This document shows, in pieces, positions 25,396-41,542 of a stretch of DNA of 43,147 nt. The stretch's first letter is position 1; each line of letters begins with the position of its first letter. The DNA is from a bacterium (GTDB taxonomy: Archaea > Thermoproteota > Bathyarchaeia > 40CM-2-53-6). Both the position numbers and the translations under genes were made by a program. The stretch covers positions 1-43,147 of the forward strand of contig JAJPJY010000069.1 in assembly GCA_021323995.1 (NCBI GenBank), written 5' to 3'. The notes under the pieces are model-generated. The model did no database searches, had not been told where the DNA came from, and worked only from the letters and a program-made list of their open reading frames with translations.

Positions 25396-25791
25396 ATGGA
25401 GGACAAGAATTTTCTGACGGAGAACAAGTTGATGAATCTCGCAACCGCCGGAAACAGTGATCCCCATGTAGTGCCCGTGGCGTTCATGTTCGACGAAGGA
25501 CGCCTTTACATCTCCACCGCGGAGAAATCTCGAAAAGTGAACAACATTAGGGCAAACAGTCGTGTGGCGTTCGCTGTTGAAGACTCGACGCGACTCAAGG
25601 CGATTGTGGGGAAAGGGACTGCGAGAATACTTCCCTCGCATGGTATCCACGATGATCTGATGAAGAAGCTAGTAATCCACCTCGTGGGTAGCCTAGACCA
25701 CCCTTACGCTAAACTCATGATGGGGCCGAACAGGGTAATAATCGAAGTAACTCCAACGGCATTAAAGAAATGGGAAAGTCCCCCAACCTGA
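25396..25791 (+). CDS. Pyridoxamine 5'-phosphate oxidase-like split-barrel (FMN/F420) protein
   Basis: LAT..PHVVPV.F..LYIST..SRKVNNIRANSRVAF.V. Confidence 0.8.
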   Translation: MEDKNFLTENKLMNLATAGNSDPHVVPVAFMFDEGRLYISTAEKSRKVNNIRANSRVAFAVEDSTRLKAIVGKGTARILPSHGIHDDLMKKLVIHLVGSLDHPYAKLMMGPNRVIIEVTPTALKKWESPPT

Positions 25792-25968
25792 GGTTTCCCC
25801 CTGAGCTTCCTCGCCTTGGACAGGGAGCCGTGAAAATGACGCCGTTATTCGATGAATTGTTTGGAGGTGACTCATACGATAAACGACTGGAGCGGAATCC
25901 AAGAACCAGAATCTAAGCATTCATTCGGATCGTTTCCTCACAAAATCGCCGCGCTCGTGCTATTGCTG
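25791..25968 (+). repeat. 178-bp direct repeat, copy 1 (copy 2 at 28454-28631)
   Basis: Ungapped, roughly 85-90% identical by eye; covers the upstream gene end, the RBS and the 5' end of the SPFH gene. Confidence 0.9.
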
Positions 25969-26049
25969 GAACGAAAAGCGGTCCTAAAAATCTACGAGAT
26001 AGCAAAGTGCGGCATCCTAGCTCTGAGTCTGGACGATGCAGGACCCTAA
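25852..26049 (+). pseudogene. Internally deleted remnant of the SPFH gene
   Basis: About the first 35 aa match 28524..; ends with CAGGACCCTAAA, identical to the SPFH stop region (29509-29520). Confidence 0.7.
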
Positions 26050-26054
26050 ATTCG

Positions 26055-26558
26055 TTAGTGCTGATGTTCTTGTTTGTCGATTTCTCCAGCAACGCTTCCA
26101 AGCTCAGCGGTCACACTTGATTCAGTTTTAGCTGGCACCATGGGGTGCCCCTTGGGACAAACCCAACCCTTACTAGTCTTGGAGAACCAGTTCTTCTTGC
26201 CACACTCAGGACAATAACGCCAACGCATTTGAGTCGATACGACAATCCCGCCTTTGAGACCGATGCCGATGAACAATCCCAGGAAGCCCCACGCAAATAT
26301 GAGTGCGTCTGGATATTTGTCCGAGAGTCCTACTGCAGTTCCACCTGCGATCATGAAGACCAATCCGCCTATCCTGCCACCGCCTTTTAGTTTCGTATTC
26401 ATGATTAGAAACCAGGCAACAAAAAAGAAGAAAGTGAAACCTGCCCAGAAGAACGGACTGTAGAACCAACCGGCGGGTGTCTCCAGCGCGTAGCCCAAGA
26501 TGACCAGTGCCAGCACAGCGAAGATGCCAGGAACGGCCAAGAGTCTCATTTGGACCAA
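26055..26558 (-). CDS. 4-TM protein with zinc ribbon, putative RHS immunity protein
   Basis: Starts 21 nt after the RHS stop; hydrophobic helices plus CPECG..CPKGH. Confidence 0.6.
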   Translation of the reverse strand: MVQMRLLAVPGIFAVLALVILGYALETPAGWFYSPFFWAGFTFFFFVAWFLIMNTKLKGGGRIGGLVFMIAGGTAVGLSDKYPDALIFAWGFLGLFIGIGLKGGIVVSTQMRWRYCPECGKKNWFSKTSKGWVCPKGHPMVPAKTESSVTAELGSVAGEIDKQEHQH

Positions 26559-26579
26559 GCTAGGTTTACACCGCTAGAA

Positions 26580-27902
26580 TCATAGACCTAGCAAAGAGAC
26601 GAATTCAGCTAGGCCACTCACGGCTGAAGACGAGAGGTCTTCAAGAACACCATTTCTCCCGTATTGACTGGTTATCTGGGTAGCGGCGTCTCCAAACGAG
26701 GAAGGATTTTGTACAGTGTCGCCACCCGATGCGAAACCAGATCCCCCAGCAATTATTACATCCAACGTGGTTGACCTATTGTCCTTTCCTTCTGCCGTAT
26801 CCGTCAAATAAGCGGTTGCCGCAGATGCTCCGCCAGCTATCGTACGCGACAAAAGGGTCGCTGCTTCTCCTCCCCCGAGAACCGACCCTGTCGCGCCTGC
26901 TTCAGGTCCTACGAGTCCGCCTGCAGCTCCCAAAGCAGCTCCCGATAGGAAGCTCGCTCCGAAACCTTCGGCAGAGCATCCCTCCGTGCTGTGGCTGCAA
27001 CCGAGGAGATAGAAGTCTCCTGAAAATCCTCCTCCTGCAACTCCCCCGATGAGCACTGGTGCCACGAAAGCATCTCCCGCTCCTGCCGTAGCGACACCTA
27101 CGACCACTAGGACTATTACAGAGATGACTATTGTTCGGAATTTGGCGTCGGTGTTCCATTTGTAGATGAGACCTTGCAGGTGGAGTGGGTCGCTTGATGC
27201 GCCGCCGATTTCTTCGTAGATGTTATGGTATCTGCAGTAGTCAATGATGCACGTTCCAAGGCCACTACCTGTCGCGGACAGTCCGGAGGGGTCTGCAAGG
27301 TCAGCGGGTGAGTCTAGAACGTAGATGTACCTGTTTAGAGTTTCAGGACTAGACAATTGGCCGGGCTTCGAGTCGGGACTGATGAACCGGCCAATCGACG
27401 GGTCGTACCATCGCTGGTAGTAGTAGTACAGGCCTATGCTTGGGCTGTATGGTTTGCCTGTGAACTTGTAGGTCTGGGTTCCCGTGGAGCTATTGTCGTG
27501 CCCGTAGGGTCGATAGTTGTCTGAGAATATTATCGACCCGTTCGCCGATGATACTAGTCTGGTATTCCCGATAGCATCGGGATGATAGTAGATGATTGTT
27601 GGATTGTTCGAGCCTGCGTTGTTCACCATGGCTATACGGAGTCCGTCTGCGTAAACATAGTCGTTGTCTGGACCGAAGGTTCCAGTCTCGCCAAGAGTCT
27701 CGGTTCCCAGATATCCATAGAAGACGTAGTATGCCGTGTCTTTCGACTCGACTCTCCGGCCCATACCTTCAAACAGCCTCCTGTTTGTCGCATAAACGCT
27801 ACGGCATGGAAATGAAATTATCCGGCCTCTTATCGAAGGGCTTGACAAGCCGAAGAGGTAGGTCTCCGTATCCTGCCGCTGCACCATGGATGTTCCATCC
27901 AC
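26580..27902 (-). CDS. RHS repeat-associated core protein, N-terminally truncated (orphan toxin module)
   Basis: YYHPDAIGNTR, Y.PYG, YKFTGK..GLYYY..RWYDPSIGRFISPD..NRY.YV...P....DPSG; RHS similarity starts near 27770; hydrophobic Gly-rich C-terminus. Confidence 0.85.
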   Translation of the reverse strand: MDGTSMVQRQDTETYLFGLSSPSIRGRIISFPCRSVYATNRRLFEGMGRRVESKDTAYYVFYGYLGTETLGETGTFGPDNDYVYADGLRIAMVNNAGSNNPTIIYYHPDAIGNTRLVSSANGSIIFSDNYRPYGHDNSSTGTQTYKFTGKPYSPSIGLYYYYQRWYDPSIGRFISPDSKPGQLSSPETLNRYIYVLDSPADLADPSGLSATGSGLGTCIIDYCRYHNIYEEIGGASSDPLHLQGLIYKWNTDAKFRTIVISVIVLVVVGVATAGAGDAFVAPVLIGGVAGGGFSGDFYLLGCSHSTEGCSAEGFGASFLSGAALGAAGGLVGPEAGATGSVLGGGEAATLLSRTIAGGASAATAYLTDTAEGKDNRSTTLDVIIAGGSGFASGGDTVQNPSSFGDAATQITSQYGRNGVLEDLSSSAVSGLAEFVSLLGL

Positions 27903-28262
27903 TGCAAGTACGGTTGTCCAAACCTTTCTTTTAAGAGTAAAGAATGAGATCGCTTCTCTTCAGGTCGGCATGATATCTTGAGAGCCTGTCTCCCACGTCG
28001 TCGAAACTTGAAGGTCACCATTTCTCAATGATTCAATTGTTAATAGTCAATTCCCATCTTCCACGTCAAATCCCGCTCTACAAGATAGTGTAGTCGAAGG
28101 CTTTCACTCAGAGTTTCCTGACGGTCTATTGTACATAGTATATGCGGATATTGGCCTAGGGTGCTTAGTATATAGTGGGTGGAGGTTGGGTGTACGAAAC
28201 TTCTCCCAGACGAGGAGCGTCCGTTTCTCTCGACAGAGCATCCAGAAGACACCGTACCGACC

Positions 28263-28496
28263 ATGCTAGTGATACCGGTCGTCCTCTGTCTAATCTGCGG
28301 ACTGTTCACAGGGGCCTTCACTATCGCGCTGCTCTTTAGACGGATCGCGATTGCGCTAGCCGTAACCGGACCCCTAGTATTTTCAGCGATCTGGATCGGG
28401 TGGGACTGGAAGGCTTTCCGGAACAAGCACCTCGCGCTCGGCGCGTTTGCTGTAGGTTTCACTCTGACTTTCCTCGCCTTGGACAGGGAGCCGTGA
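28263..28496 (+). CDS. Small 3-TM membrane protein
   Basis: Hydrophobic ORF directly upstream of SPFH; open from 28179. Confidence 0.55.
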   Translation: MLVIPVVLCLICGLFTGAFTIALLFRRIAIALAVTGPLVFSAIWIGWDWKAFRNKHLALGAFAVGFTLTFLALDREP

Positions 28497-28631
28497 AAAT
28501 GACGTCGTTATTCAGAAAATTGTTTGGAGGTGACACATACGATAAACAACTGGAGCGGAGTACAAGAACCAGAATCTAAGCACTCATTCGGATCGTTTCC
28601 ACACAAAATCGCCGCGCTCGTCCTACTGCTG
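28454..28631 (+). repeat. 178-bp direct repeat, copy 2
   Basis: Matches 25791-25968. Confidence 0.9.
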
Positions 28632-29519
28632 ATCATCGCACTGACTTCGCTAGGCGTGATTGGATCAGACCTCTACACGGTCGGAGTCTCACAAGTCGGA
28701 ATACTAGTGAACCCCTACAATGGAGACTTTAGCGGACCAGTGGCGGGACCAACTCTCGCATGGAAAAGCGTCCCATGGATCAATGTGGTCATTGTTTCGA
28801 CCTCGGTTCAGACCATACAGATGGTCGGTCCCGGCAACAACATCAACGTGTTGACCAAAGACAATCTCAATGTCTCGCTAGACGTTACGGTGCGCTACGA
28901 AGTAATGGCGACCAACGTCATTGCGCTCTACAAACGCTATCCCGCGCTATCGTGGGAAGGCGATGCGCTCGTACCCTTGATCAGGTCTAGCGTTAGAGAC
29001 GTTGTCGCAAACTATACTGCTGACGAGCTTCAAGCGGTGAGAGCGCAGATACAGGCGGGCGTAGAAGTCAGGTTGACAACAAGTCTCGCGACTGAACCAT
29101 CGCTCGCGAATGACATTCAGCTAATCGAGATCAACGTTAGGGACATTGTGCTACCGAACAGTTTCCTCGCCGCTATCCAGGCCAAGCTCAACGCTCAACA
29201 ACAACTGCTCCAAGCACAGTTCCAAGCCCAACAATTGATCGTGACAGCTCTCGGCCAGCGCAATGCTACAATCATAGCGGCTCAGGCCTTGGCGAACGCG
29301 ACACTGATCCAGGCAGCAGCCAACGCGCAGTCCATCAGTAGCATCATCTCACAAGTCGAGGCTCAGACAAGAACAACCTGGAATTCGACCCAGGTCGCCG
29401 ATTTCACCAACATGTACACTGAGCTGCAACTACTGAGTAAGCTGACCGGCCAGAACCTGTACATCTTCGTTGGCAGCCCTAATGGCTCACTGATTATTCC
29501 CACCAAGTCAGGACCCTAA
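28524..29519 (+). CDS. SPFH/band-7/prohibitin family membrane protein
   Basis: TM helix, then LTKDNLNVSLDVTVRY, IRSSVRDVVANYTA, INVRDIVLP..AIQAK and a coiled coil; may start at ATA 28542. Confidence 0.88.
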   Translation: MEVTHTINNWSGVQEPESKHSFGSFPHKIAALVLLLIIALTSLGVIGSDLYTVGVSQVGILVNPYNGDFSGPVAGPTLAWKSVPWINVVIVSTSVQTIQMVGPGNNINVLTKDNLNVSLDVTVRYEVMATNVIALYKRYPALSWEGDALVPLIRSSVRDVVANYTADELQAVRAQIQAGVEVRLTTSLATEPSLANDIQLIEINVRDIVLPNSFLAAIQAKLNAQQQLLQAQFQAQQLIVTALGQRNATIIAAQALANATLIQAAANAQSISSIISQVEAQTRTTWNSTQVADFTNMYTELQLLSKLTGQNLYIFVGSPNGSLIIPTKSGP

Positions 29520-30097
29520 ACCTAATTTGCCTAGGTCTGAATTTCCCAACTTTTTCATAAAGGACCTACTTAGCTACCATACCGTCGAGAAACCTCGATT
29601 CGAAGCACCATCATCAACTCTTGTACTTTTGAAGGAACTGGATCCTTCCGGTCCCAGTGATCATACACTTCGAGAACTTCTCTAACAAATCCCGGTGCAA
29701 GTTCAACGTATTCATTCGTCTCCGGGACGTGTAGTGGATTGTGCGTATTGATTCTGTGGTGCCTCGTTCGAAGACCCAATTGTTTCTGACTCAAGAGAAT
29801 TAAGAAGACTCTTAGCCAATAGAGGGGTGCAAACCTGATTTCGGTCGAACATGATCCGTCGCTTTGAAAGGAGGCTCAAGTCGAGCAGAGCCATATCGTA
29901 GTCGAATCTTTTCACAAAGTGGAACAAACAAAAAAAAAACGCAGTCTTCAGAGGGTTTTTGCGGACAGTATCGCTTTTGTAATGACGGAGTATGAGTTTC
30001 TCAACTAGTTTCTAGAAGAGAGAGCGGAGAAGGCGAATGCTGAACGAAGCCAACTATATCTATTCGCAAAATCAGCCCTTGAAGCTGACTGTATGAA

Positions 30098-30229
30098 TTG
30101 ACGAGTCTCAACACGGTCATCTTGATCGTTGGAGTTACCATAGTCATAATTGCCGTGGTGATTACTGTTCGTGTCTTGACTGGGCGAGGCTGGAGCAATC
30201 TATCCAAGAAACCTGAAAAGGAATCTTAA
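30098..30229 (+). CDS. 43-aa single-pass membrane peptide (absent from ORF track)
   Basis: MTSLNTVILIVGVTIVIIAVVITVRVLTGRGWSNLSKKPEKES*, a TM helix with a basic tail. Confidence 0.45.
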   Translation: MTSLNTVILIVGVTIVIIAVVITVRVLTGRGWSNLSKKPEKES

Positions 30230-30309
30230 ACAGAACAAGTGCCGAACGTATTCACTAGAAATTTATGCTCCGAGAATTAGACGAAGCCTTAGGACCCGCA
30301 GCTATTCCG

Positions 30310-30711
30310 CTACTTGCTGGGTGAGGGCGTGTTCTTGCCGAAGAAGTTCTTTGGACCCGGTCTAGTAAGATAGACTGGGATGACTATTCCGGCGATGGTT
30401 CTGATGATGCCGCCGATGAATCCGATGTTGCCGCCGTAGAGGATCTCAGCTATCCCGAGCCCTATCGATATGATGTAGATTACGATGCCCGCCATCCACG
30501 CCCATTTTGCTCCAGTGTAGAATCCTGCGCCCAAGGTGAGGCCAAAAATTCCAAATATGACCACTATGATCGCCAGGACTATGGGTCCGGAGGCATTGCC
30601 TGCAAGAACTGAGGCTCCTCCAAAGAGCGAGAGCAAGCCGCCGGCGGCAGCAACTATTGCAATTATCGTGACACCGAGAGGCCTTTTGGGCTTCGGCCCA
30701 ACTGACGCCAT
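30310..30711 (-). CDS. 4-TM membrane protein
   Basis: KRPLGVTIIA..G.KWAW..YL.RP..K.FF pattern common in archaeal small membrane proteins. Confidence 0.75.
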   Translation of the reverse strand: MASVGPKPKRPLGVTIIAIVAAAGGLLSLFGGASVLAGNASGPIVLAIIVVIFGIFGLTLGAGFYTGAKWAWMAGIVIYIISIGLGIAEILYGGNIGFIGGIIRTIAGIVIPVYLTRPGPKNFFGKNTPSPSK

Positions 30712-30742
30712 GATTGTTGATTGAGAGGTCGAAAGATAAGAC

Positions 30743-31021
30743 TTAGCTTGATTCGATGGATGGCTTCGTCTGTTTGGAATTTCTTGAGAGTACTAAGAGT
30801 CCAGCTCCGTATCCGATTGCTAGCGTCTCAAGGACTTCAAGAGCATTGACGACGGGTCCAATGTAGATACTGGTCCCGGGAAAAGTATGATCACATGGTG
30901 GTGAGCCGTAAGGAAGAGCGGGGCAAGATCCGAAGTCTTCGTTCGCGAAAGCAACGGCCAGAAAGAATGATCCTGCTCCTATAGCAACTAGTGTCAACCC
31001 GACTGCCTTGACCCAGTTCAA
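30743..31021 (-). CDS. Two-TM protein with Cys-Cys loop
   Basis: TM, CPALPYGSPPC, TM. Confidence 0.55.
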   Translation of the reverse strand: MNWVKAVGLTLVAIGAGSFFLAVAFANEDFGSCPALPYGSPPCDHTFPGTSIYIGPVVNALEVLETLAIGYGAGLLVLSRNSKQTKPSIESS

Positions 31022-31195
31022 ACGACTCTACGCCTAGTTGGGTCCTAGGTGATTCGAAGAGGATTCTGTAACCATCCTATATTTCTCCGCGCCATTTCTT
31101 CAAAGGCCCTGCGAGGGATTGAGGATTATCTTCATCATGGCTTTTATATCCAAAACTAGGCGTTAGAGAGCAGACCCTTTCAGAGTTGATTTGAC

Positions 31196-31675
31196 ATGCA
31201 GCTATCAGGCTATTCGGCTTCAAAAGGGCTGAAGGCTGGGCTAGTCGGCGGACTTGTCGGAGGAGTCGTACTGGGCATATTCGCACTTGTGGGCTCAATG
31301 GCTCTGGGACAAGAAGTTCCCTACGTTACAATAGCCAGGAACATGGGTTTCGGCGACTTTGCCGTTGCAGGAGGCTGGATTCTCCACTTCATCGTGAGTC
31401 TGGTTGCTGGCGGAGTGTTCGTGGCCGTGACGGGTGTGGTCAAGCGCCTCACTCTCACAACAGCCCGGAAGAGCCTCTGGGTCGGCGCATTGGCAGGAGT
31501 GGCTGTGTGGATTGTTGTCGACGTCCCAGTGACAGGCCTTTGGGCTATTGCAGATCTCACAAATCCGAACTTTGCCGTAGGTACGTTCATCCTGCACATC
31601 GTATACGGCATAGTAACTGCACTGGTTGCAGTCGTAATCCTCCGACGCAATGTCTCAACCCTGACCAAAGCATAA
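31196..31675 (+). CDS. 4-TM membrane protein with two intramembrane His
   Basis: GWILHF and LHIVYG motifs. Confidence 0.75.
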   Translation: MQLSGYSASKGLKAGLVGGLVGGVVLGIFALVGSMALGQEVPYVTIARNMGFGDFAVAGGWILHFIVSLVAGGVFVAVTGVVKRLTLTTARKSLWVGALAGVAVWIVVDVPVTGLWAIADLTNPNFAVGTFILHIVYGIVTALVAVVILRRNVSTLTKA

Positions 31676-31713
31676 CAGCAATTATTTGCGACCGCTAGGA
31701 CCTGACAGCCGTA

Positions 31714-32103
31714 ATGGAACTACCTGTTCAGCCAGCCTCGCAAGGGTCCCATGGGAGAAACTATGAGCGAGCTCCCTGGTGCTACCTACTCTGGGGCGTC
31801 CCCGTTGTGCTCGCAATAGGGGCCAACGAAGCCCACGACTTCTCCGGACTATCCATAACCGCAACAGGAGCCCTCTGGGTCACGGCCGTCGCATGGGCCG
31901 GAATAGGCTGCTTGATAAACGGACGAACCTGCGGCAGGGTCCACTGCAGAATAGACGGAATCCTATTTCCAGCACTAGCCATCATCGGCGCGCTCAACTT
32001 GCTGATGGTAATCTCGTTCGGCTGGAACCTGTTCTGGCTCGCCTTCATAGTGATCTTGGTCGCGAGCTTCATTCCAGAATGGACATGGAAAAAATACTCC
32101 TGA
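31714..32103 (+). CDS. Membrane protein with conserved Cys/His cluster
   Basis: LLWGVP..GIGCLINGRTCGRVHCRIDG. Confidence 0.7.
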   Translation: MELPVQPASQGSHGRNYERAPWCYLLWGVPVVLAIGANEAHDFSGLSITATGALWVTAVAWAGIGCLINGRTCGRVHCRIDGILFPALAIIGALNLLMVISFGWNLFWLAFIVILVASFIPEWTWKKYS

Positions 32104-32359
32104 ACCATCCTTACCGCCGTGAAGCCCTATTTATCCAAATAAAACCGTAACGTGCTACCACATCTTGAGAAAGACCACAAGGAACAGTCGGGTACTTCGA
32201 ACCCATCGCCATGATCCTCGACCTTCTCGCACCTTCTCCGAAGCTGGCTGCGTAGGGAGGGCCATCAATGGCGTTATGAAGAGTTCGTTCGCCATTAAGG
32301 CCAGTGAGTTGATCTAGAAGACTGGAATGAGACAGGGATTTCTAACACCTTACGTTAGC

Positions 32360-32514
32360 GTTTCTGTGCAAAGACGGCATTTCATGCTCACTCCACTAAT
32401 GTCTTTGGAGAAGCAGTTATTACTCTAGTGGCAGTGATCCTCGACAGAGTCATGCATCTGGTCGTCCTGATCGAACTGGAGAGAGTAGCGGATTGTTTCT
32501 GTGCAAAAACGACA
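32360..32514 (+). repeat. Two 20-bp direct repeats upstream of the recombinase-HEPN gene
   Basis: GTTTCTGTGCAAAGACGGCA (32360-32379) and GTTTCTGTGCAAAAACGACA (32495-32514), 18/20 identical. Confidence 0.7.
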
Positions 32515-32571
32515 GGCCCGACACTCAAGCTGAAACTTTAAGCTGAATTCATCAGTATTCTGAACCTAGCG

Positions 32572-33492
32572 ATGGGCAAGCGACCGATTCCAGAACTTAC
32601 GAAAGACCAGATTCGTCATCTACTTGAAGTCATAAGAACATCAAAGACAGAGACCACCAAACGAGACTACCTCATCTTTAAACTGATCATCGAGCACAAC
32701 TTCAAACCTGGCTGGGTCGTGGGAGTAGACCAGCCGGTTAGAGACGTAGAAGATGGTATCCACATTGAAGACCTTGTCGGCGATTCCAAGGTACGAATAC
32801 GAGTGTGGAGCGGACAAACGAAGGAATCTGCTGAGATTGACATTACCAAAGAGACAATGAAAGAACTTCGTCGCTACGCTGGCGACAGGAAGGTGGGTAT
32901 GCTGTTCGACCTCACCGTGGGCCGTATCGAACAGTTGACAAAGAAGTATTGTGAAGAAGCCGGAATTCCTTCGAAGCATGTTCGCCCCGAGACACTTAGG
33001 AATCGATTGAACCCGAGCAGGCCCATTTCGTTTCAGGTAGAACTTTCGTGGGTGGAAGACGACATAATGAGACAAGCCCAACGTATGACGTACTATTATC
33101 TACTGAACTATTGCATCGAGAACAGCATACGCCGCTTGGTCTCGAAAACGCTAGCGAACAAACATGGCCCTGATTGGTGGACTAAATGCACGTCCCCCGA
33201 AATACAGAAACACGTTGACGACACACGAAGTGAGGAAAGGAATCTCCCGGGAGCCATTAGGTCGGAGAATCCTTTGGATTATCTGTTGCTTCGAGAGCTA
33301 TGGGACATTATGAAGGCCAATTGGGCCGACTTCTCGGATAGAGGATTGAATAGGCCCGCGATGAGCCACGCGTTTCTTACACTCAACCAGCTTAGAAGAG
33401 TGATCGCCCACAACGTCGAGCTGCCCGAGAGAGAGAAGAAGAGATTCGAGATCTTTGAAGCAGATTGGCGTGATCTATTAGTAGGCTATTAG
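32572..33492 (+). CDS. Fusion of a degenerate tyrosine-recombinase-like domain and a Swt1-like HEPN domain
   Basis: N-terminal LTKDQIRHLL..RDYLIFKLI..HVRPETLR; C-terminal Y.L.YCIENSIR..GPDWW..DYL...EL..I..NW..F..LRRVIAHN; TTTAAG box about 30 nt upstream. Confidence 0.75.
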   Translation: MGKRPIPELTKDQIRHLLEVIRTSKTETTKRDYLIFKLIIEHNFKPGWVVGVDQPVRDVEDGIHIEDLVGDSKVRIRVWSGQTKESAEIDITKETMKELRRYAGDRKVGMLFDLTVGRIEQLTKKYCEEAGIPSKHVRPETLRNRLNPSRPISFQVELSWVEDDIMRQAQRMTYYYLLNYCIENSIRRLVSKTLANKHGPDWWTKCTSPEIQKHVDDTRSEERNLPGAIRSENPLDYLLLRELWDIMKANWADFSDRGLNRPAMSHAFLTLNQLRRVIAHNVELPEREKKRFEIFEADWRDLLVGY

Positions 33493-33616
33493 CGATCAAG
33501 AACTAGACAATCTTGAATTAAGACCCTCTCAGGGATTTGGCCTGTAGAAGCGAGACCCGAGCAGTTTCGCCCTTGTGTCTGAGCAATAGCCGAAACATTG
33601 CTCAACTCTACAGACC

Positions 33617-33961
33617 TTGGGTCAGCGGAGCGGCTGGTGCGAGCGACTACGCGTCAACCCCTCACGAATGGAACAAGAACTCGCGATCAGGCTACAAGAA
33701 GATGGAATACGCTACCAGACACAGGTCGAGATATCAGTGACGACGGCCGACTTCTACTTCCCGCTGGAGTCTAGACCCTTGCTAGTGTTTGTCGATGGTC
33801 GGGTCCCTCTTGGAACCACGCAGATGATCAAGGACGAAGAGTTACGGTCACTGTTACGGAAGAGAGGATACAAAGTCCTCGAGCTACACTACAAGAACTA
33901 CTCGGATAATGCAAGGGACAATTTGTATGGCAAGCTAATGGAGTGCATAGGCGGGAGATAA
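33617..33961 (+). CDS. DUF559/Vsr-like PD-(D/E)xK endonuclease, possibly decayed
   Basis: PS.ME..L..Y.TQ..ADFY..VFVDG..KD..L..RGYKVL; Pro at the usual His position after DG. Confidence 0.65.
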   Translation: MGQRSGWCERLRVNPSRMEQELAIRLQEDGIRYQTQVEISVTTADFYFPLESRPLLVFVDGRVPLGTTQMIKDEELRSLLRKRGYKVLELHYKNYSDNARDNLYGKLMECIGGR

Positions 33962-34119
33962 TTCCTCTATTTAGATCTCACCGTTTCGCCCTATGGACCG
34001 ACTCATGCCATTCTCACGAACGGTCGATTCTGCTATCCCTTGGTATCCAAGGACTGAGTTGTAGGGACTATTCTTATTTACCCATATCTGCAGATTTTTG
34101 GTCGAGAACTTAGAATCCG

Positions 34120-34485
34120 ATGTCCCAGTCAGCAAGGTTCTGTCCGAACTGTGGCCGAGCTAGTAGCTCCAAATTCTGTCCTTACTGTGGCGCCAGCATG
34201 CAAACTCACTTGTCTCAAGTGCAGCCCCAACCTCAGATCGTCTATGCCAAGAAGGTCAGTCATCGTGGCGCGATTTTAGGTATTGTCTTCCTATTGCTGG
34301 TGGTAGGGTTCTTTGTACTGCCCATTGTCAACATTGAGTCAGTGAACATTGCAGTTGCAAATGTGTCAGTGACCGGTTCTGTATCGTATGCTCTGTTTCA
34401 ATGTGGAGAAGTGCACCTGACTGGGTCAACTGTCGGCGTCTCCGTAGATCGATACGAATGGGTTTGTGGGAGTCAAGCTCCCTAG
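34120..34485 (+). CDS. Zinc-ribbon membrane protein
   Basis: FCPNCG..KFCPYCG, TM helix, short Cys-containing outer domain. Confidence 0.75.
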   Translation: MSQSARFCPNCGRASSSKFCPYCGASMQTHLSQVQPQPQIVYAKKVSHRGAILGIVFLLLVVGFFVLPIVNIESVNIAVANVSVTGSVSYALFQCGEVHLTGSTVGVSVDRYEWVCGSQAP

Positions 34486-34500
34486 GACGGGCTGAAGGCC

Positions 34501-35595
34501 GTGGCAGAATTCGATAGGCGCTTTTGTCCTGATTGCGGTGCAGCGGTTCTGAAGGGTACCAGCTTTTGTGGTGATTGTGGGCATCGGATCTCGTTCTCCG
34601 ATTCGGCTTCTCCTGAGAAACCTAGTGATCAGTCTAGTTCAATCCGGAATGCTAGTACGAAGGAACCATCGCCAAACATTCAGGTGCAAAGACCCTATTG
34701 GACCGCCGCAAAGGTCGTCGGATTGGTTCTGGTCATGTTCATAGCCGTTTCTGCTGTGGGTGCCGGAGTATACTACACACTTTCCAAGGGCCAAACCGCG
34801 ACTGGAGGATCTGATCATTCATGCTCCTCAGGTCAAACTCTCGTAAATGGCTCGTGCTATGCCAACTGTAGCAATGGCGCGACGAATCCACCAACATGCG
34901 ATCAAAACTCGCAATGCAGCGATGGCGCCATCAATCCACCTCTATGCACAGTCTACTCCAGTTCAGTTTCGTTATCCTGCACACCAACTGACGGTTTTTA
35001 CAGCGGTAATGTCGGGACCGGTCAAGGCCCATTTGGCGCATATTGCACCGCGACCGTGACTGATAGGACGATACCTACAGGAACCGTCGGATGGTCTAGC
35101 TATCAGGCTTTGGGTGGAAGTAGCACGTGTACTCTTATCGGGACTTCCGGCTCAACTTCAGCATGTAGCGACACGCTTACTCCGGCACAGCCTACCAACG
35201 GATATCTTACGCACATGACAGTTCTTGCAAACTACCAAGGTGACAATAGTCACACTAGCAGCTCAGTATCCAGCACTCTTACGGCACCTTCAACGGTAAC
35301 CCTCAGCGGAACCGCAATGTACCAGCCTGGTTGCATTGGTTGCTCGGTGACGAGCGTAGTAATAGTCAACTCCGGAACTCACCAAACAACCACAATAACT
35401 TCAAGCACTTGTCCGGGGAACAGTAACTGGTGCTTCACAGTTTCATTGCCCAACCTTCAAAATTATACCGTGCATGTCTATTACAGTGGAACCTTTGGTT
35501 CCGGGGCCTGCAACTCAGTTGGATCCAATCCGAACTTCTACGTTGACATCTACCAATTCAGTAATACAGCCGGTGGAAACTTCGACTGTGCATGA
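34501..35595 (+). CDS. Zinc-ribbon, TM and Cys/Thr/Ser-rich extracellular domain protein
   Basis: FCPDCG..FCGDCG, TM, CSNGATNPPTC/CSDGAINPPLC repeats, Ig-like ANYQGD motif. Confidence 0.75.
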   Translation: MAEFDRRFCPDCGAAVLKGTSFCGDCGHRISFSDSASPEKPSDQSSSIRNASTKEPSPNIQVQRPYWTAAKVVGLVLVMFIAVSAVGAGVYYTLSKGQTATGGSDHSCSSGQTLVNGSCYANCSNGATNPPTCDQNSQCSDGAINPPLCTVYSSSVSLSCTPTDGFYSGNVGTGQGPFGAYCTATVTDRTIPTGTVGWSSYQALGGSSTCTLIGTSGSTSACSDTLTPAQPTNGYLTHMTVLANYQGDNSHTSSSVSSTLTAPSTVTLSGTAMYQPGCIGCSVTSVVIVNSGTHQTTTITSSTCPGNSNWCFTVSLPNLQNYTVHVYYSGTFGSGACNSVGSNPNFYVDIYQFSNTAGGNFDCA

Positions 35596-35737
35596 CAAGA
35601 ATGGTATCGAGGTTGGTCTGAATCTGTCCGACGAAGTCAACAACCACGAACATCCTACGATAACTTACAAAGCCGATCGGCGTCATCTGTATTAGGCCAA
35701 TAATCCTCTGTTGCAATTGGGTTTGGGAGGTCATAGC

Positions 35738-35896
35738 ATGGGGTTAAGCAATGAGGAGCTGGCAGGATATTGGTGTCCCCAATGCGAAAAGTCCGAATTT
35801 CTTGAGGGCTACCCTGAGCATGGACGGGCGTGGTGCGCGAACTGCGGCTTTGCTGCCAGTACTAGAGACTGGAAAGATTGCATTTCTCTTTTTTGA
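35738..35896 (+). CDS. Small zinc-ribbon protein
   Basis: GGAGGT RBS; CPQC..CANCG. Confidence 0.6.
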   Translation: MGLSNEELAGYWCPQCEKSEFLEGYPEHGRAWCANCGFAASTRDWKDCISLF

Positions 35897-36194
35897 CCTT
35901 GAAAGTTATCGAGGTTCTAGCGGACCGGAAACTCAGACCGTTCCATCCTTCGTTCTTGAATTAGTCGCTTGATTCGTTCTTGTTTGGGGGCTGAGTCCAG
36001 CACTATGTCCAGCCTTGATTTCCACGAACACCACTTCATGGCTACGTTGGTCTAGACATTGCTGATTGTTTTTCCGTGTCGCCTACATGCCGGGTCAACA
36101 GATATCGTGGGATAGAATTCGATTCAGGAAATCCTTTTATTCGTATAATGTTCGAACACGTTAATATTCCAAAATCGGGAACAGAGGTGATTAG

Positions 36195-36815
36195 TTGAAC
36201 GCGTTCACGATAATCGGGATTACTGCAATCACCCTGCTTTCAATCATGCCAATAGCCAAGACCGCACCGCCTACTCTTACGATTCAATCACTTTCAAATC
36301 AGATCACGCTTGTCCCATGGGAGCGGGTAATACAGAATCAAACTAACACCGGATCCGGGTTCATAGATTTCTGCGGTGTACCATCGAACCCAACCGCACC
36401 ACCTTGGTACGCTACGTACGCGGCTGGTTACAATTTCACGATCAGTCTGAATGGAAAGGATCCGGGATCTACTTTCATCAACTTCAAGTCCGGCATTGCC
36501 GTACCCGCCATTTCTAATGGAATGTTGTGGGTTCTCTACAACTCATCTGACATTTCAATGCCGTTGATTCGGGCCTATTGTGACTATCAATACTACGGTT
36601 TCCTTACTTCTAGCTCAGAAGTCGAGATCTACACTAAGGCAGTAACGGCCCTTTCGATAGCACCCTTCGTCGACACAAACTCGTGGCGAGTTCCTAACTC
36701 TGGCACGTATACATTCTTGCAGTTGTTCAGTTGCTCATGCCAATCAAATCAAGTGCTCACAAATTTCGCTAAGATCAACGCTACAGCCACTTGGACAGTG
36801 ACAACGTTGTCATAG
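36195..36815 (+). CDS. Secreted hypothetical protein
   Basis: GAGGTGA RBS, signal peptide, beta-rich domain; T-tract follows at 36852-36858. Confidence 0.7.
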   Translation: MNAFTIIGITAITLLSIMPIAKTAPPTLTIQSLSNQITLVPWERVIQNQTNTGSGFIDFCGVPSNPTAPPWYATYAAGYNFTISLNGKDPGSTFINFKSGIAVPAISNGMLWVLYNSSDISMPLIRAYCDYQYYGFLTSSSEVEIYTKAVTALSIAPFVDTNSWRVPNSGTYTFLQLFSCSCQSNQVLTNFAKINATATWTVTTLS

Positions 36816-37760
36816 AGTTGTCGAGCCTATTCACATTCTTCCTCTCAACCCTTTTTTTGACCTAGTTTCGGTAGCAAGACCACGCGACCTGTAAAATGCA
36901 GGTCTTTTTGTCGCCCATCATACCGGGTAGCTGCGAGTGCTCGCTTCGGGTTCTGTTGAATAAGCACGGCTTAGACCCTTGCCGCAATCAAGGCGTGGCA
37001 AAGGTTGAGAAACAGGTTACAGAACAGCTTTCCAAATCGATAATCGGAAATTACTATCCTGGACACGTTCTGAAACGGGTACCCAAAACAGCGCTTGGAA
37101 CTCGCGTCCGGAAACGTGTTCTGAAAACGACTATCGTTAACTATTCTAGACCCCCCCGGGGCCTATCCAGGTCTCGCGAGACGCTTCACAACCCGCGACA
37201 AGATCCACGTTCTACGATACTATGTTTCTGAGTAGAAACGGTAGAATCGGTCCTTGGACTCGCCCAGAACAAGCCGCGATCGCAATTCACGGCATAGTTT
37301 TTGACCTAGGCGTATTCTGCACGTTCACCGGGACGCTAACCGCTACGATCCTAGAAACACTCGACCAGCCAGATCTGCCGCCAGACTCGAAAAATTCGCC
37401 CAAAACAGTTTCAACCAGCAAGACCACTCTCTAAATTTCCCAATCCTCATTCACTCGCGACACAAAAGTGGTCTTTGGAGGAGAACATTGTCTATGATTC
37501 GCCAGGGAACAGATCCCGATTCGTGATCTGGAGGGTTGGGCCCGATACTGCCTTCGTTAGCCCGTTTCGTAAGCGTGAAAGGGCCCTACCGGCGATAGGA
37601 AACAAGCTTGGACTGATCGAAAGCAAAAATTCTCCCGCGAGACAAAACATTGTTTCCGGACCCTCGTAAGGGAAGGATCGTCCCCAAGGACCCATTGTCC
37701 CCTAAAGGCCCCTTCGCGGTTACCATAGATTCTTTCTTTCGTCTCGACCATCGAAACCCG

Positions 37761-38066
37761 GTGAACCTTCCGACGAAGCCACAAACCCTAATCGCACTCT
37801 TCACCGCAGTTGGCATCCTTTTGGTATCGTTGGCCTTCTTAATTCTCTCAAGTGATCAAGTCTCATCTTGCACCATTATCATTCCCGGACAGCCCTACAC
37901 GTGTGGCACGCCCACGATAATTGCCAATCCACCCACCACGCTCGCATTCGGAGTACTCACTGCGCTTGGCGCACTAGCCCTTGGGGCCGGGACCTTTATG
38001 CTTCTCACATTTCTTCGAAATAACCGAACAACCTCCCCGACTGACAAAAAGCCCCTAACCGAATGA
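37761..38066 (+). CDS. Two-TM protein with Cys-Cys loop
   Basis: GTG start; TM, CTIIIPGQPYTC, TM, basic tail; converges on the tRNA. Confidence 0.55.
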   Translation: MNLPTKPQTLIALFTAVGILLVSLAFLILSSDQVSSCTIIIPGQPYTCGTPTIIANPPTTLAFGVLTALGALALGAGTFMLLTFLRNNRTTSPTDKKPLTE

Positions 38067-38074
38067 GAGGACAA

Positions 38075-38201
38075 TGGCGCCGGGAGTGGGATTTGAACCC
38101 ACGCGTCCGTGAGGACACAGGCTGACAGGAGAGCCATTTTCCAGACATGGGCCCGCACTGTTCTGAGCGGACTGCCCGGTACCAGGCTCCGGAATCCCGG
38201 C
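38075..38201 (-). tRNA. tRNA-Ser(GGA) with two introns (29/30 at 38147-38171; 37/38 at 38124-38138) and encoded CCA
   Basis: Acceptor GCCGGGA/TCCCGGC, G73, D-stem CCGG/CCGG, long variable arm GTCC/GGAC, T-arm GTGGG-TTCAAAT-CCCAC; spliced anticodon arm CAGGT-CTGGAAA-GCCTG; 87 nt mature. Confidence 0.88.
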
Positions 38202-38277
38202 CCGACAAGCCACAATGTCCATGGACTATTTTTCCCCTTTGGACACTGAAAACAACCCGCGAATCATCCGGAATGAG

Positions 38278-38457
38278 ATGATGAGAAGTAGAGTGGCGAT
38301 GGGAGCGAGCCAGCCAGCAACCCTTAACGGGCGTATTGGCAGTGCTCGCGCCCGGGGGACGCCACCCTTGTATTGGGTTTACCGGTGAAAACGGTCCTAA
38401 GCTATGTGTTACCCGTGACCATGAGGACCCGTAACCGTGGGAACCTAGCCCGGTAGG
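38278..38457. ncRNA. Candidate structured RNA of unknown class
   Basis: GC-rich intergenic stretch with a 77-nt nested hairpin (38291-38367) and three smaller hairpins. Confidence 0.45.
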
Positions 38458-38500
38458 CACGATTTTAAGAGACCAAGCCGCCCATTGGAGCAGGGTAGTT

Positions 38501-39349
38501 TTGGACCACTGCGCAGTATGCGGGGCAGAGGAGTTCATTCCCTACAACTGTCGATACTGTGGCGGCGTCCACTGCGTCTACCATCGACTACCCGAGAACC
38601 ATGAATGCCCAAACATAGCCCAGGCACGCGCGCCCCGGCAGAACGTTCAGCTAGAACGTCGACGAACCGGGACCACTCTACGACTAGTCCGGTCTCCCCG
38701 AATCGCCATGATGCCCGGCCGAGAAATTCTCGCACTCTCCGTCGCTTGGATCGTCCTTGGAATCAGCTTCTCCACCCGGTGGATGTACCTAGGCTGGCTC
38801 TCGCAGCCCGTAGCTTTCCTCGAAATCTTCCTCCTAACATTGCTGATCATTGGCACCGGCTTTCTCGGACACGAACTAGCCCACAAGCTTGTAGCCCAGC
38901 GTTACGGTGCATGGGCAGAGTTCAGACTCTGGACTATCGGCGCCATAATGGCGTTAGCCTTCGCGGCCATACCCCCAGGAAATGTTGTCTTCGCCGCGCC
39001 AGGAGCAGTCTACATCGCGTCACGCTCTAGATACCTTGCTGATGTTATGGACCGGAAAACTAACGGAATAGTCTCCCTCGTCGGACCCCTCGTCAACGTT
39101 GCAGCAGCAGGAGTCGCCGGATTACTCTACGCCGGCCTCTCAGCTGCTCGTATAGGGATGACGATCAGCGGCTTCAACCCGCTCCTCTGGGCTATCCAGA
39201 TCAACCTCTGGCTGGGAGCGTTCAACATGATACCGCTCTTCATTCTCGACGGTCAGAAAGTGCTCAGCTGGAACAAGACGATCTGGGCATTGATAACAAT
39301 CCCGCTATGGACAGCAACAGCCCTCAGCATCCTACTACTATTCCCGTGA
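38501..39349 (+). CDS. AN1-type zinc finger fused to a site-2 (M50) intramembrane metalloprotease
   Basis: C..CG..PY.CRYCGG.HC..HRLPENHEC; HELAH; GPLVN; FNMIP...LDG. Confidence 0.9.
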   Translation: MDHCAVCGAEEFIPYNCRYCGGVHCVYHRLPENHECPNIAQARAPRQNVQLERRRTGTTLRLVRSPRIAMMPGREILALSVAWIVLGISFSTRWMYLGWLSQPVAFLEIFLLTLLIIGTGFLGHELAHKLVAQRYGAWAEFRLWTIGAIMALAFAAIPPGNVVFAAPGAVYIASRSRYLADVMDRKTNGIVSLVGPLVNVAAAGVAGLLYAGLSAARIGMTISGFNPLLWAIQINLWLGAFNMIPLFILDGQKVLSWNKTIWALITIPLWTATALSILLLFP

Positions 39350-39499
39350 GTCTGAGCCCCATCTCAGCACACTACCGCCGGTAAAGCGATACTCTTGTCC
39401 ACACTTGGCGCAGACAACTGTATACTCTTCATCAGCAGCGACTTGGACCTTGATCTCTTCGCCACAGTTGCAGACGAAAGAGACCTCGCTGGTTGACAT
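39338..39499 (-). CDS. 53-aa zinc-ribbon protein coupled to cbf5 (absent from ORF track)
   Basis: ATG 1 nt after the cbf5 stop; MSTSEVSFVCNCGEEIKVQVAADEEYTVVCAKCGQEYRFTGGSVLRWGSDSRE*. Confidence 0.7.
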   Translation of the reverse strand: MSTSEVSFVCNCGEEIKVQVAADEEYTVVCAKCGQEYRFTGGSVLRWGSDSRE

Positions 39500-39500
39500 T

Positions 39501-40545
39501 CTAGGATGAGGTTGCAACCTGGACAGTCTGGCTCGGCCGCGACTTCCACAATCGGGGATAAGTGTCGACCGGCATGATCACCCGGACCGTCTTGGCAGCA
39601 ATCCCTCGTTCTTCTTTCATTATCTGCTCGCTCGACATCAATGCTCTAGACAATGCGACCAGCTCCTCCTTCAACGTGAACAATGCGATCGGCGTACGGG
39701 GATAGATCTTGTCGCTAAGCCGGACAATTCCCGGAACCGCCAGCTCCGCACCGTGACAGATAGAACTGACCGCAGAGTCACGCAAGTACACGCGCGGAAT
39801 GTAGTCGAACGCTGATTCCATCGGCTTGACAATTTTTCGAAACAATTCCTCTCTCTTTTCGCCGGTAGACTGTGACAGCTCTAGCACGTCGTAGAGCGAT
39901 TGAATGTCGGATTCGCTGAAGCTGCCCGCACGAGTCCTCCTCAGCTCTCGCATGTGAGCACCCACCTGGAGCACTTCGCCTAGGTCATAGACGAGTTTTC
40001 GGATGTAGGTTCCGGCTTGGCATCCGACCCTGAACAGGACCTGTCGACCATCAATCTCTACATCTCTGATGTAGTAGATCCGTCTTTTTCGAAGATCCCT
40101 TCTCACCGCCGCCCTTACCGGCGGCCTCTGAAGAATATCGCCAACAAACTCGTTGAGTGCGGCTTCTATCTTAGGTTGGTCTATGTCTCCGTGTAGTGCC
40201 ATGAGACAGACGTATTCTTTGCCGGTGAGGAGAAACGCCTGGATCGTCTTGGTAGCGTCTTCGAGTGCTAGCGGCAAGACACCGGTGACCATCGGATTGC
40301 TCCGACCCTTGTCGGGTCTCTAGAGTTCCGCCGTGGCCAGCGTGTTTCAATCCTAGCATTCTTTTCACCCACGCCACAACCTCGTGGCTTGACGGTCCAG
40401 ACGGCTTATCCAGGTTGATCAGTCCAAACCGGATGTGCTGGTCTAACGGTCTCTTCAGAGGAGGACAACCGTACGATGGGTCGGTCTCTTCTTCGAGCTT
40501 GACCAGCAGTTTTCTCTCAGTTTCCCATGGCGCGATCTGAGACAC
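39501..40545 (-). CDS. cbf5: H/ACA pseudouridine synthase Cbf5; exons 40545-40320 and 40297-39501
   Basis: [13 protein letters not shown], spliced [41 protein letters not shown] domain. Confidence 0.95.
40298..40319 (-). other. 22-nt BHB intron in cbf5 mRNA
   Basis: Central helix CTCT/GGAG, bulges AG^A and CA^A, intron stem GACCC-GACAA-GGGTC; removal restores the frame and the catalytic Asp. Confidence 0.92.
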
Positions 40546-40642
40546 TCAAATCTCCAACGAAAACCGTTGAGCGTCGAGTCTCTTAAAGAATCCCGAATAT
40601 CGGGAACGGTCGAAGACTGAAAAGAATCGTACAGCGATTCGT

Positions 40643-40939
40643 CTATGCGGTCGTCATTATCTCGGTCGGGAGAACCTTCTCTTTGAGCGACTCTGCCTTC
40701 TTGCCCCGCCCAAATGCTTTCGATACATCCTCGTCAGAGGCGCCTTTCTTGACCTCCACCGTGTCCTCAGTAGGCTCGAGATGTTTCACATTGGTCCGTC
40801 GTCGTCTGACCCCCGTGACCTTTAGCGGCCCAGTTACTAGGACGAAGTTCTTGTCAATCACATCGACAATAACGCACTTGTGTCCCGCTTCGCGGCCGTT
40901 GAGCTTGACGCAGATTCGCCCGACTTCTATGCTTGGCAT
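40643..40939 (-). CDS. rpl14e: 50S ribosomal protein L14e
   Basis: IEVGRICVKL.GREAG.KCVIVDVIDKNFVLVTGP..GVRRRR.NVKHLEPT. Confidence 0.96.
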   Translation of the reverse strand: MPSIEVGRICVKLNGREAGHKCVIVDVIDKNFVLVTGPLKVTGVRRRRTNVKHLEPTEDTVEVKKGASDEDVSKAFGRGKKAESLKEKVLPTEIMTTA

Positions 40940-40981
40940 GTTCTTCTAGTCCTAGGATGGTTTTGCGTGGAAAATTCTCAT

Positions 40982-41542
40982 TTAAGGCTTCGTCGCCTTA
41001 TGCCGCTCCTTCTTAGCCCTCTTCACCATCAACGCCGCGTCAAGAAGAACCCTCGCCGTGTCGTCAATAGATCCTAAGCTCGTATCAAGGATCAGATGGT
41101 AGATGGATCGGTCTTCGACACGAAATCCGTAGTGGCGGAGATATCTCTCGCTCTGTACCGACTCTCTCTTCTCAGTCTGAACCCGGGCCTCATCGATACT
41201 CAGCTTGTCTCGCTTGGCGATTCGTTCTAGCCGGATGTTTTCGGGTGCCGTTAGATAGATTCGAAGATCTGCCTTGTCCATTATGACCCAGCCTACAAGT
41301 TGGCCATCGATGACGGCGTCACCTTCGTCGGCTTCTTTTACTGTTCTCTCGTCTACGAGCTTGTCGATCGAGAAATCCTCTAGCGCTTTTCGGCCCATGT
41401 CTAGGATCGAGAGATTGTTTTCTCGCGCAATCTTCCGAAACAGAACGCCCGCGGAAACATGCCGTAGTCGCAGGTCTTTTGCGAGTCGTGCTGCGTAGGT
41501 AGACTTGCCGGTTCCGTGGGGCCCGCTTACTGAAATAATCAT
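40982..41542 (-). CDS. cmk: Cytidylate kinase (archaeal type)
   Basis: MIISVSGPHGTGKST P-loop, SAG.LFR; ATGA overlap with the rpl34e stop. Confidence 0.9.
   Translation of the reverse strand: MIISVSGPHGTGKSTYAARLAKDLRLRHVSAGVLFRKIARENNLSILDMGRKALEDFSIDKLVDERTVKEADEGDAVIDGQLVGWVIMDKADLRIYLTAPENIRLERIAKRDKLSIDEARVQTEKRESVQSERYLRHYGFRVEDRSIYHLILDTSLGSIDDTARVLLDAALMVKRAKKERHKATKP

Follow-up and report, generated by a model that had tools for sequence, protein, structure and literature searches.

A truncated, catalytically dead tyrosine-recombinase fold fused to a Swt1-type HEPN domain in Bathyarchaeia

What decides when a toxic ribonuclease (RNase) fires? Many toxin and defence systems use a HEPN RNase as their effector, and they differ in the mostly unknown part that determines when it is set off. 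A single gene on contig JAJPJY010000069.1 of the Bathyarchaeia assembly GCA_021323995.1, which we analysed over a stretch of 43,147 nucleotides (the window), raises this question in an unusual form. In its product, a tyrosine-recombinase fold that is truncated and catalytically dead precedes an Rx4H HEPN domain. The part deciding when the HEPN domain fires would then be what is left of a site-specific recombinase, whose fold serves to recognize specific DNA sites and junctions. A first-pass annotation, made from the DNA letters alone, had proposed this architecture, and all the motifs that it quoted (RDYLIFKLIIEHNFK, PETLRN, CIENSIRR, GPDWW and RRVIAH) are present in the 306-residue translation of the open reading frame (ORF). 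We give a probability of roughly one half to the reading that the protein is a conflict-type RNase that stands alone and consists of two modules, acting as a toxin or in abortive defence, and that the dead recombinase module targets or regulates the HEPN domain. The gene is single-copy in its source genome (2.0 Mb in 180 contigs, 85.7% complete), and its product is the sole HEPN_Swt1 match there.

The N-terminal module corresponds to a recombinase catalytic domain of the archaeal XerA type, of which the first two thirds are present. We built an AlphaFold2 (AF2) model of the fusion protein on 15 sequences, with a mean predicted local distance difference test score (pLDDT) of 79.6, and compared it with 48,161 PDB chains using VIA-align. 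The top 17 matches were all tyrosine recombinases or type IB topoisomerases, at Z 9.5–13.8. The best was XerH (5jjv; Z 13.8, root-mean-square deviation 2.8, 133 residues), and further values were 12.5 for XerA (4a8e), 12.4 for XerD (1a0p) and 9.5 for Cre. The matches to recombinases span model residues ~3–150, up to the HxxR box only, and the N-terminal half was modelled with a pLDDT of 85–94 across most blocks. The top families returned by Foldseek were those of the structural search, namely tyrosine recombinases, related integrases and type IB topoisomerases, among the 48 matches listed.

Sequence profiles also point to XerA. Pfam Phage_integrase (PF00589) scored the single protein weakly (E 0.18, 12 bits against a cut-off of 27.1), and NCBIfam XerA_Arch (NF040815) aligned residues 9–144 to its positions 97–220 of 263 with an E-value of 2.9e-6 (27.1 bits against a cut-off of 220), both scores lying below the curated recombinase cut-offs. 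A profile of 15 family members reached Pyrococcus abyssi XerA (4a8e) at E 7.3e-6. Furthermore, a hidden Markov model (HMM) built on seven real XerA ORFs from our scan of the phylum, with L019, in which no ORF was detected, left out, gave the window protein 42 bits and ranked it first among the 155 proteins scored. A phmmer search of the single protein against the PDB returned one entry, DUF4201 at E 0.027, which we rejected as spurious. The initial suggestion that the first ~150 residues follow the recombinase catalytic-domain pattern is thus upheld by the profile matches as well as by the fold check on the predicted structure, which retrieved the tyrosine-recombinase fold.

The fusion protein cannot, however, be a recombinase. 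In HMM alignments to XerA, the column of the first catalytic arginine (Arg-I) holds a lysine, K45, as it does in 9 of the 11 full-length family members described below, the remainder having T or S. The column of the first histidine (His-I) holds a glutamate, E140, again in 9/11. The second arginine (Arg-II) is retained as R143 (R in 9/11 members, K in 2/11), and the Lys-beta column shows no conservation among the 11. The structural alignments stop at XerA residue 242, short of the XerA tyrosine at residue 261, and so the segment carrying His-II and the tyrosine nucleophile is absent together with the last helices. At the other end the N-terminal core-binding (SAM-like) domain is not present, the protein beginning at XerA model position 97. 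With Arg-I changed to Lys, His-I changed to Glu, and His-II and the Tyr nucleophile deleted, cutting and joining of DNA is impossible. The box I and HxxR substitutions and the missing tyrosine helices had been pointed out in the first-pass annotation, and each is seen in these alignments.

The C-terminal half is a Swt1-type HEPN domain. Pfam HEPN_Swt1 (PF18731) matches residues 181–291 above its cut-off of 27.5 bits (31.4 bits, E 2.6e-7), and the PADLOC models for PDC-M34B match residues 149–300 at E 1.6e-30. The EN..R, G.DWW and RxxxxH motifs by which this domain had originally been recognized are borne out by its conservation: E183, R187, W202, W203, R230, R275 and H280 are invariant in all 11 full-length members, and E183, R187, R275 and H280 are conserved at 90% or more among 150 relatives, 146 of which match PF18731. 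The acidic and basic pair of the first helix (E..R) and the G.DWW segment are taken as a hallmark of the Swt1 family on the basis of the family alignment rather than of a curated rule. Because the E..R and Rx4H residues are kept, the domain is most likely, judging from its sequence, an active metal-independent endoribonuclease. In HEPN RNases generally, dimerization brings two Rx4H motifs together to make up one composite site.

In the AF2 model the C-terminal half is all-helical. Its best structural match is PbAbiF (8vz6, Z 8.9), followed by the Roquin HEPN domain (8.2) and the HEPN-MNT toxin 7ae2 (7.0), and it also matches AF_0298 and Csm6, with all HEPN matches falling at Z 6.2–8.9. With this tool, Z values below ~13 may be generic for helical bundles. 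Such values are indecisive for a fold of this kind. The HEPN assignment is carried by the sequence evidence. Pfam Abi_2 gave no match to the fusion protein. The coordinates of both modules, and of the genomic features discussed further on, are collected in Table 1.

Table 1. Features of the fusion gene and its surroundings, in window coordinates.
Feature	Position	Strand	Basis
Whole gene, recombinase-remnant/HEPN fusion (ATG start, 306 aa plus stop)	32572..33492	+	ORF list
aa 1–150, truncated degenerate tyrosine-recombinase catalytic domain, XerA-like	32572..33021	+	Fold and profile matches
K45 codon, at the catalytic Arg-I (recombinase TGxR) position	32704..32706	+	HMM alignments to XerA
P139-E-T-L-R-N144, remnant of the HxxR(H) box	32986..33003	+	Alignment to XerA PHxLRH
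aa 149–161, interdomain linker, low confidence	33016..33054	+	AF2 pLDDT <50 at residues 149–161
aa 162–306, Swt1/Abi2-type HEPN domain, PDC-M34B-like	33055..33489	+	Pfam PF18731, PADLOC, structure
E183-N-S-I-R187, first conserved HEPN motif	33118..33132	+	Invariant in 11/11 full-length members
R275-R-V-I-A-H280, Rx4H catalytic motif of HEPN RNases	33394..33411	+	Invariant in 11/11
TATA-like AAACTTTAAGC, ~30 nt before the ATG	32534..32544	+	Sequence
Variable islet of 5,971 bp, fusion gene at its left edge	32104..38074	.	Comparison with congener G403
Intron-containing tRNA with a 42-nt intron and a long variable arm	38075..38201	-	Rfam, and ARAGORN with introns allowed

The fusion is no isolated case. 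A HMMER search over 1.84 billion representative proteins found 582 relatives at E ≤ 1e-3, ten of which reach E ≤ 1e-30. The hits include full-length fusions (P0003, P0009–P0014, P0016 and P0031) and fragments, and a word-index search added P0002. This makes a family of ~11 full-length representatives, mostly from metagenomes and 28–79% identical to the window protein. The word-index searches returned six proteins with the whole protein as query and two with residues 1–150. Scans of contig collections gave one genome locus, in a Candidatus Bathyarchaeota metagenome-assembled genome that was the sole hit among species-representative genomes, and six metagenome loci, all with the same architecture. 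HEPN_Swt1 is above the Pfam cut-off in 5/7 of these loci; in the others, L026 and L027, it reaches 22 bits (<27.5), and Phage_integrase scores ~1e-5 and 25 bits (<27.1). Both halves and the RxxxxH motif are kept in 11/11 members of this diverged family.

The N-terminal half diverges faster than the HEPN half, its identity being the lower of the two in 43 of 55 pairs, and it keeps a set of structural residues (L38, G47, F112, A130 and I132) in the full-length alignment. It is basic in every one of the 11 members, with an isoelectric point (pI) of 9.4–11.3 (9.38 in the window protein) and a net charge of +5 to +15. The HEPN half has a pI of 4.8–6.5 in 9/11 members and of 8.1 and 8.7 in the other two. 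The basic character of the N-module fits nucleic-acid binding, and a module that is retained, evolves fast and is always basic is likely to be a targeting or regulatory part. It could also be argued that the N-terminal part is an evolutionary leftover, the decayed integrase of a lost element that was joined by accident to a HEPN gene and has no function, and the loss or deletion of the recombinase catalytic residues and the position of the gene in a variable islet beside a tRNA would suit such a history. However, at least 11 representatives, some with as little as 28% identity, retain the two-domain ORF unbroken over its full length, the structural residues listed above are conserved, and the N-terminal half is predicted to fold confidently. 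A bacterial family that a test on the HEPN tree sets apart from this one shows a comparable truncation, as described below. We therefore consider an accidental leftover very improbable.

The distribution of the fusion is patchy and mobile-like. The 15-member profile, run over 401 genomes of the phylum, hit 43 places, of which only the window locus was full-length; 16 were HEPN-only and 26 N-half-only, the latter being ORFs of ~280–350 residues. Two of these ORFs that we inspected are ordinary XerA proteins with RVGE, HKLRH, GH and Y, one of them matching Phage_integrase at 3.2e-29. No full-length fusion was found in the other 400 genomes sampled across the phylum. At the level of the genus, full-length copies occur in 3/22 genomes, and the fusion is absent from 5/6 congeners with a completeness of 90% or more. 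Each of the three congeneric copies occupies a locus of its own, and their mutual identity is 28–35%.

This distribution bears on whether the protein could serve some Bathyarchaeia in RNA processing, as a housekeeping or stress enzyme, with the N-module as an RNA-binding handle and no role in conflict. The basic N-module would agree with this, as would the neighbours at related loci, which are mostly metabolic or informational with defence genes not seen, and Swt1 of eukaryotes and other HEPN families are placed in RNA surveillance and processing in a survey (PMC3710099). However, the patchy presence, the differing loci and the low identity of the congeneric copies, compared with ~70% in the flanking core DNA, make a housekeeping role a poor fit, and we judge it quite unlikely.

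A second group of proteins has a closely similar plan. Among the 150 relatives, 10 match Pfam Phage_integrase (best E 1.8e-14). The strongest of these are bacterial proteins of ~400–415 residues (P0056, P0103, P0154, P0152, P0089, P0082 and P0101), in which a core-binding domain and a catalytic domain ending directly behind its HxxR box are followed by a Swt1-type HEPN domain that has the Rx4H motif. This long form follows the same logic as the short archaeal one, a recombinase part cut after HxxR and joined to a Swt1 HEPN domain, and differs from it in the extra N-terminal core-binding domain and in a separate HEPN cluster; it is uncharacterised. Arg-I is retained in P0056 alone among the seven aligned, and an HMM of the short-form N-module fails to detect the long forms. 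In a FastTree phylogeny of the HEPN domain (171 rows, 146 alignment columns) the short and long forms fall into separate clusters, and an approximately unbiased (AU) test on 62 of the 171 rows, with groups chosen after the first tree was seen, rejected a single clade of both forms (p 0.01). The separate clusters and the AU result suggest that the two forms are probably separate origins of one design. The pairing of Phage_integrase with HEPN_Swt1 is already visible in the automatic annotation of the long form. A search with P0056 gave 30 proteins, some labelled 'integrase' or 'XerD' by JGI and one labelled by NCBI as 'Swt1 family HEPN domain-containing protein [Gammaproteobacteria]'; the bacterial relatives that carry the former labels are almost certainly not recombinases.

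One protein of the long-form type may carry a different effector. P0177 (400 residues, on a 3.2-kb metagenome contig) has a long-form N-module, with 50% identity over 236 residues. Its C-terminus is matched by the PADLOC model 'Effector TIR' at E 3.8e-7, has no Pfam match, and gave an Atlas lead (0.89) to nucleoside 2-deoxyribosyltransferase-like clusters. This may be a swap of the HEPN domain for a TIR-like one, and as one protein on one short contig it counts as a lead only. An N-module joined either to a HEPN or to a TIR-like domain is what one would expect to see if a sensor could exchange its effector.

Two other arrangements were seen. In P0030 (358 residues, metagenome) the HEPN domain groups with those of the short forms, and the recombinase remnant is ~36 residues longer, reaching a 'LLGH' region past HxxR; the protein may be an intermediate form. 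On Sphingomonadales plasmids, the gene for a 482–484-residue 'Swt1 family HEPN domain-containing protein' is followed by one for an intact 374–375-residue tyrosine recombinase, the stop of the first overlapping the start of the second. This two-gene unit is present in 5 records from two lineages, and at the two loci read (L041 3939–6517 and L042 3945–6523, on Qipengyuania and Sphingobium plasmids) its proteins are 51% and 65% identical between the two genera. It is an unfused link between the tyrosine-recombinase and Swt1-HEPN families.

How might the two modules of the fusion work together? In the reading that we favour, the HEPN domain would be the effector, an endoribonuclease that, by analogy with other HEPN RNases, is active only as a dimer pairing two Rx4H motifs. 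The N-module would bind nucleic acid, either DNA or structured RNA, or otherwise tether the protein. Two N-modules lying side by side on the ligand would bring two HEPN domains together, and their pairing would switch on RNA cleavage and lead to growth arrest. We regard the architecture itself as established; the fold, the lost recombinase chemistry, the conserved HEPN residues, the family and the patchy distribution are shown, and we infer the RNase activity, the ligand, the control by dimerization and the role in defence. A broader proposal, which we regard as unlikely, is that truncated dead tyrosine-recombinase domains form an unrecognised class of nucleic-acid sensors for single-protein immune effectors. 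Such domains would recognize att-like or branched DNA of mobile elements and answer by RNA cleavage; they would have arisen at least twice, from archaeal XerA (short form) and from bacterial integrases (long form), by the same cut after HxxR, and would be wired to interchangeable killing domains, either the Swt1 HEPN RNase or a TIR-like domain.

The fusion shares features with several known or candidate systems and is not identical to any of them. Over its first two thirds, the catalytic domain of archaeal XerA and bacterial XerC, XerD and XerH has the same fold (Z 12–14); the fusion differs from all of them in having no core-binding domain, no Arg-I, His-I, His-II or Tyr, and no C-terminal helices. 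Other proteins keep the recombinase fold after catalysis is lost. MrpR of SPbeta is described in PMC10516654 as a dead integrase fold that binds DNA, and SroF of phi3T is reported to be an integrase-fold repressor without recombinase activity; both are among the structural matches to the fusion (8a0a, Z 8.1, and 9rd5, Z 8.6). They set a precedent for a tyrosine-recombinase fold retained as a DNA-binding module, but they are full-length two-domain phage transcription repressors with no nuclease effector and no truncation after HxxR.

On the HEPN side, the fusion is related to PDC-M34, a PADLOC candidate system made up of a DUF5343 protein (PDC-M34A) and a Swt1-type HEPN protein (PDC-M34B), the latter matching the HEPN half of the fusion. 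Of the HEPN-only relatives that the phylum scan detected, the nearest is a 194-residue PDC-M34B protein in genome G196, where it forms an operon with a DUF5343 gene (PDC-M34A E 9.7e-55, PDC-M34B E 6.9e-48). PDC-M34B has a leader of ~50 residues, whereas the fusion has its 150-residue recombinase remnant there, in place of the leader and the separate partner. PDC-M34 is itself only a defence candidate, and no paper naming it was found in the literature searched. Variation in the N-terminal module is familiar from other HEPN effectors, and HARE-HTH, Mrr_N, HNH repeats and AAA ATPases occur as N-terminal modules among the 150 relatives.

AbiF and AbiD (Abi_2) belong with Swt1 to one Abi2/Swt1 HEPN branch in a table of PMC3710099. 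They are single-protein toxic RNases, and AbiF is the best structural match to the C-terminal half of the fusion, but it has no recombinase-like domain and is controlled by an adjacent non-coding RNA (ncRNA), while no conserved upstream repeat or RNA was seen at the fusion loci. In agreement with the first-pass annotation, which did not recognize the architecture from any named system, it corresponds to none in the defence libraries or in the literature searched, where no paper describing the short- or the long-form fusion was found. The main text of the 2013 HEPN survey (PMC3710099) does not contain the word 'recombinase', although its supplements, which list architectures, could mention such a fusion.

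The genomic setting gives a further view of the gene. The window is archaeal chromosome, as indicated by Cbf5 (TruB and PUA domains), cytidylate and adenylate kinases and an EMC3/DUF106 protein. A congener, G403, shares the flanks 30310–30696, 31711–32103 and 38075–40995 at 70–78% DNA identity and has 2,325 unrelated bp between them in place of the islet; having the same flanks and an unrelated interior, it places the fusion gene at the left edge of a variable islet whose other edge meets a tRNA gene at its 3' end. The block conserved in all 18 congeners searched begins at 38075 or further right, mostly exactly at 38075, and in a DNA comparison with 30 relatives a short piece at this position is conserved across orders. 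Default ARAGORN and two Rfam scans called no tRNA in the window; a focused Rfam scan detected the intron-containing tRNA, 4.6 kb downstream of the fusion gene, at 30.8 bits (cut-off 29, E 1.5e-4). ARAGORN names it Asp(GTC), an identity that is doubtful because the G403 orthologue is called Ser(GCT). The claim that the gene lies in an island beside a tRNA therefore holds.

It had also been claimed that the gene has its own promoter. A TATA-like AAACTTTAAGC lies upstream of the ATG and is possibly the archaeal promoter of a nearly leaderless mRNA, and similar A/T-rich boxes were seen by eye 25–40 nt upstream in 5/9 family loci; the promoter itself is unproven.

This setting is also where a toxin–antitoxin or addiction module has to be considered. 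The gene would then encode the toxin, with an unrecognised antidote that is either a small protein or an RNA of the AbiF type (type III-like), and the recombinase remnant would reflect descent from an integrative element or cooperation with one. Support for this comes from PbAbiF, which is bound to its ncRNA in 8vz6, and from a preprint (bioRxiv 10.1101/2025.04.15.648962) that reports neutralization of AbiF-family HEPN toxins by an adjacent ncRNA. The ~470 nt upstream of the fusion gene contain no convincing gene and do contain a 20-nt direct repeat (32360–32379 and 32495–32514), the islet that holds the gene adjoins the 3' end of a tRNA, and the overlapping genes on the Sphingomonadales plasmids show a Swt1-HEPN gene next to an intact recombinase. 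However, upstream direct repeats are missing in 7/8 related loci, and on the minus strand the window repeat reads as two C-R-x-C-T-E-T (CxxC) stretches of a zinc-ribbon-like ORF broken by a TAG. Rfam gave no match for an ncRNA upstream of the fusion. The islet has no integrase, the four Phage_integrase matches of the genome lying on other contigs, and no att-like repeat of the tRNA was found within 26000–38400. Together with the failure of Abi_2 to match the protein and the lack of a conserved neighbouring ORF among 9 loci, these findings lead us to regard a toxin–antitoxin module as unlikely.

The same neighbourhoods weigh against the conflict-type reading. The 15 neighbouring ORFs of the window gave no PADLOC match save a Cas11 row at E 0.041, and PADLOC on 31 neighbours at eight loci gave weak wHTH- and AAA-type rows only. 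Pfam on 32 ORFs from the seven related loci identified mostly ordinary or housekeeping genes, including those for an aldehyde dehydrogenase, an MFS transporter, a HAD hydrolase, a pyrophosphatase, an acyl-CoA dehydrogenase, RNase HII and deoxyhypusine synthase. BLASTP of 23 small neighbours found nothing common between the window and the 7 loci, and comparison of the window with two congener contigs found no common neighbour or antitoxin. No PDC-M34A/DUF5343 protein is present among the 15 neighbours or in the 85.7%-complete genome, and the control genomes were silent too. The fusion thus stands alone, without a conserved partner gene, and the defence context that the first-pass annotation had suggested looking for did not appear, with no defence genes at any of the 9 loci examined.

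Other points on this side concern the structure and the proposed sensor. The model has a predicted template modelling score of 0.49, on its alignment of 15 sequences; the best Foldseek match in the PDB is at E 1.4e-3, with nothing at ≤1e-3; and the HEPN-half Z values lie within the generic range for helical bundles. A recombinase-like grip on DNA by the former active-site pocket is unlikely, since the conserved glutamate at the His-I position would repel a phosphate. The sensing of DNA, which we infer, is weakened by this glutamate at the site of the scissile phosphate and by the absence of a defence-island context. The TIR swap depends on one long-form bacterial protein that lies outside the archaeal family, and viral contigs, searched with one pattern, yielded no relative.

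If the remnant does sense nucleic acid, the fusion would be a compact single-gene sensor-effector from the poorly studied Bathyarchaeia, with a bacterial counterpart and possibly a TIR-bearing sibling. It would also represent a second use of 'dead' integrase folds, besides phage repressors such as MrpR.

The islet contains several other genes. Directly downstream of the fusion, 33617–33961 (+) encodes a 114-residue protein with a weak match to DUF559/Vsr-type endonucleases (E 4.7e-4) and to the MTES_1575 restriction endonuclease (E 0.0029). Its family is multi-copy, with four more members in the genome (69–74% amino acid identity) and several per congener, and the gene is not linked to the fusion at other loci. 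The adjacent genes 34120–34485 and 34501–35595 (+) both start with zinc-ribbon motifs and are weakly similar (24% over 76 residues); the second encodes a product rich in Ser, Thr and Cys that is probably secreted or attached to the surface. The segment 37217–37683 recurs on five other contigs of the genome (C83, C162, C111, C36 and C69) at 75–82% DNA identity and could represent a gene present in several copies or a piece of mobile DNA.

Elsewhere in the window, a 178-bp duplication (25791–25968 and 28454–28631) has 90% identity between its copies. Finally, 12132–14636 (+) encodes an 834-residue protein with the unusual pairing of an MG2 (alpha-2-macroglobulin-type) domain and a C-terminal KaiC-like ATPase.

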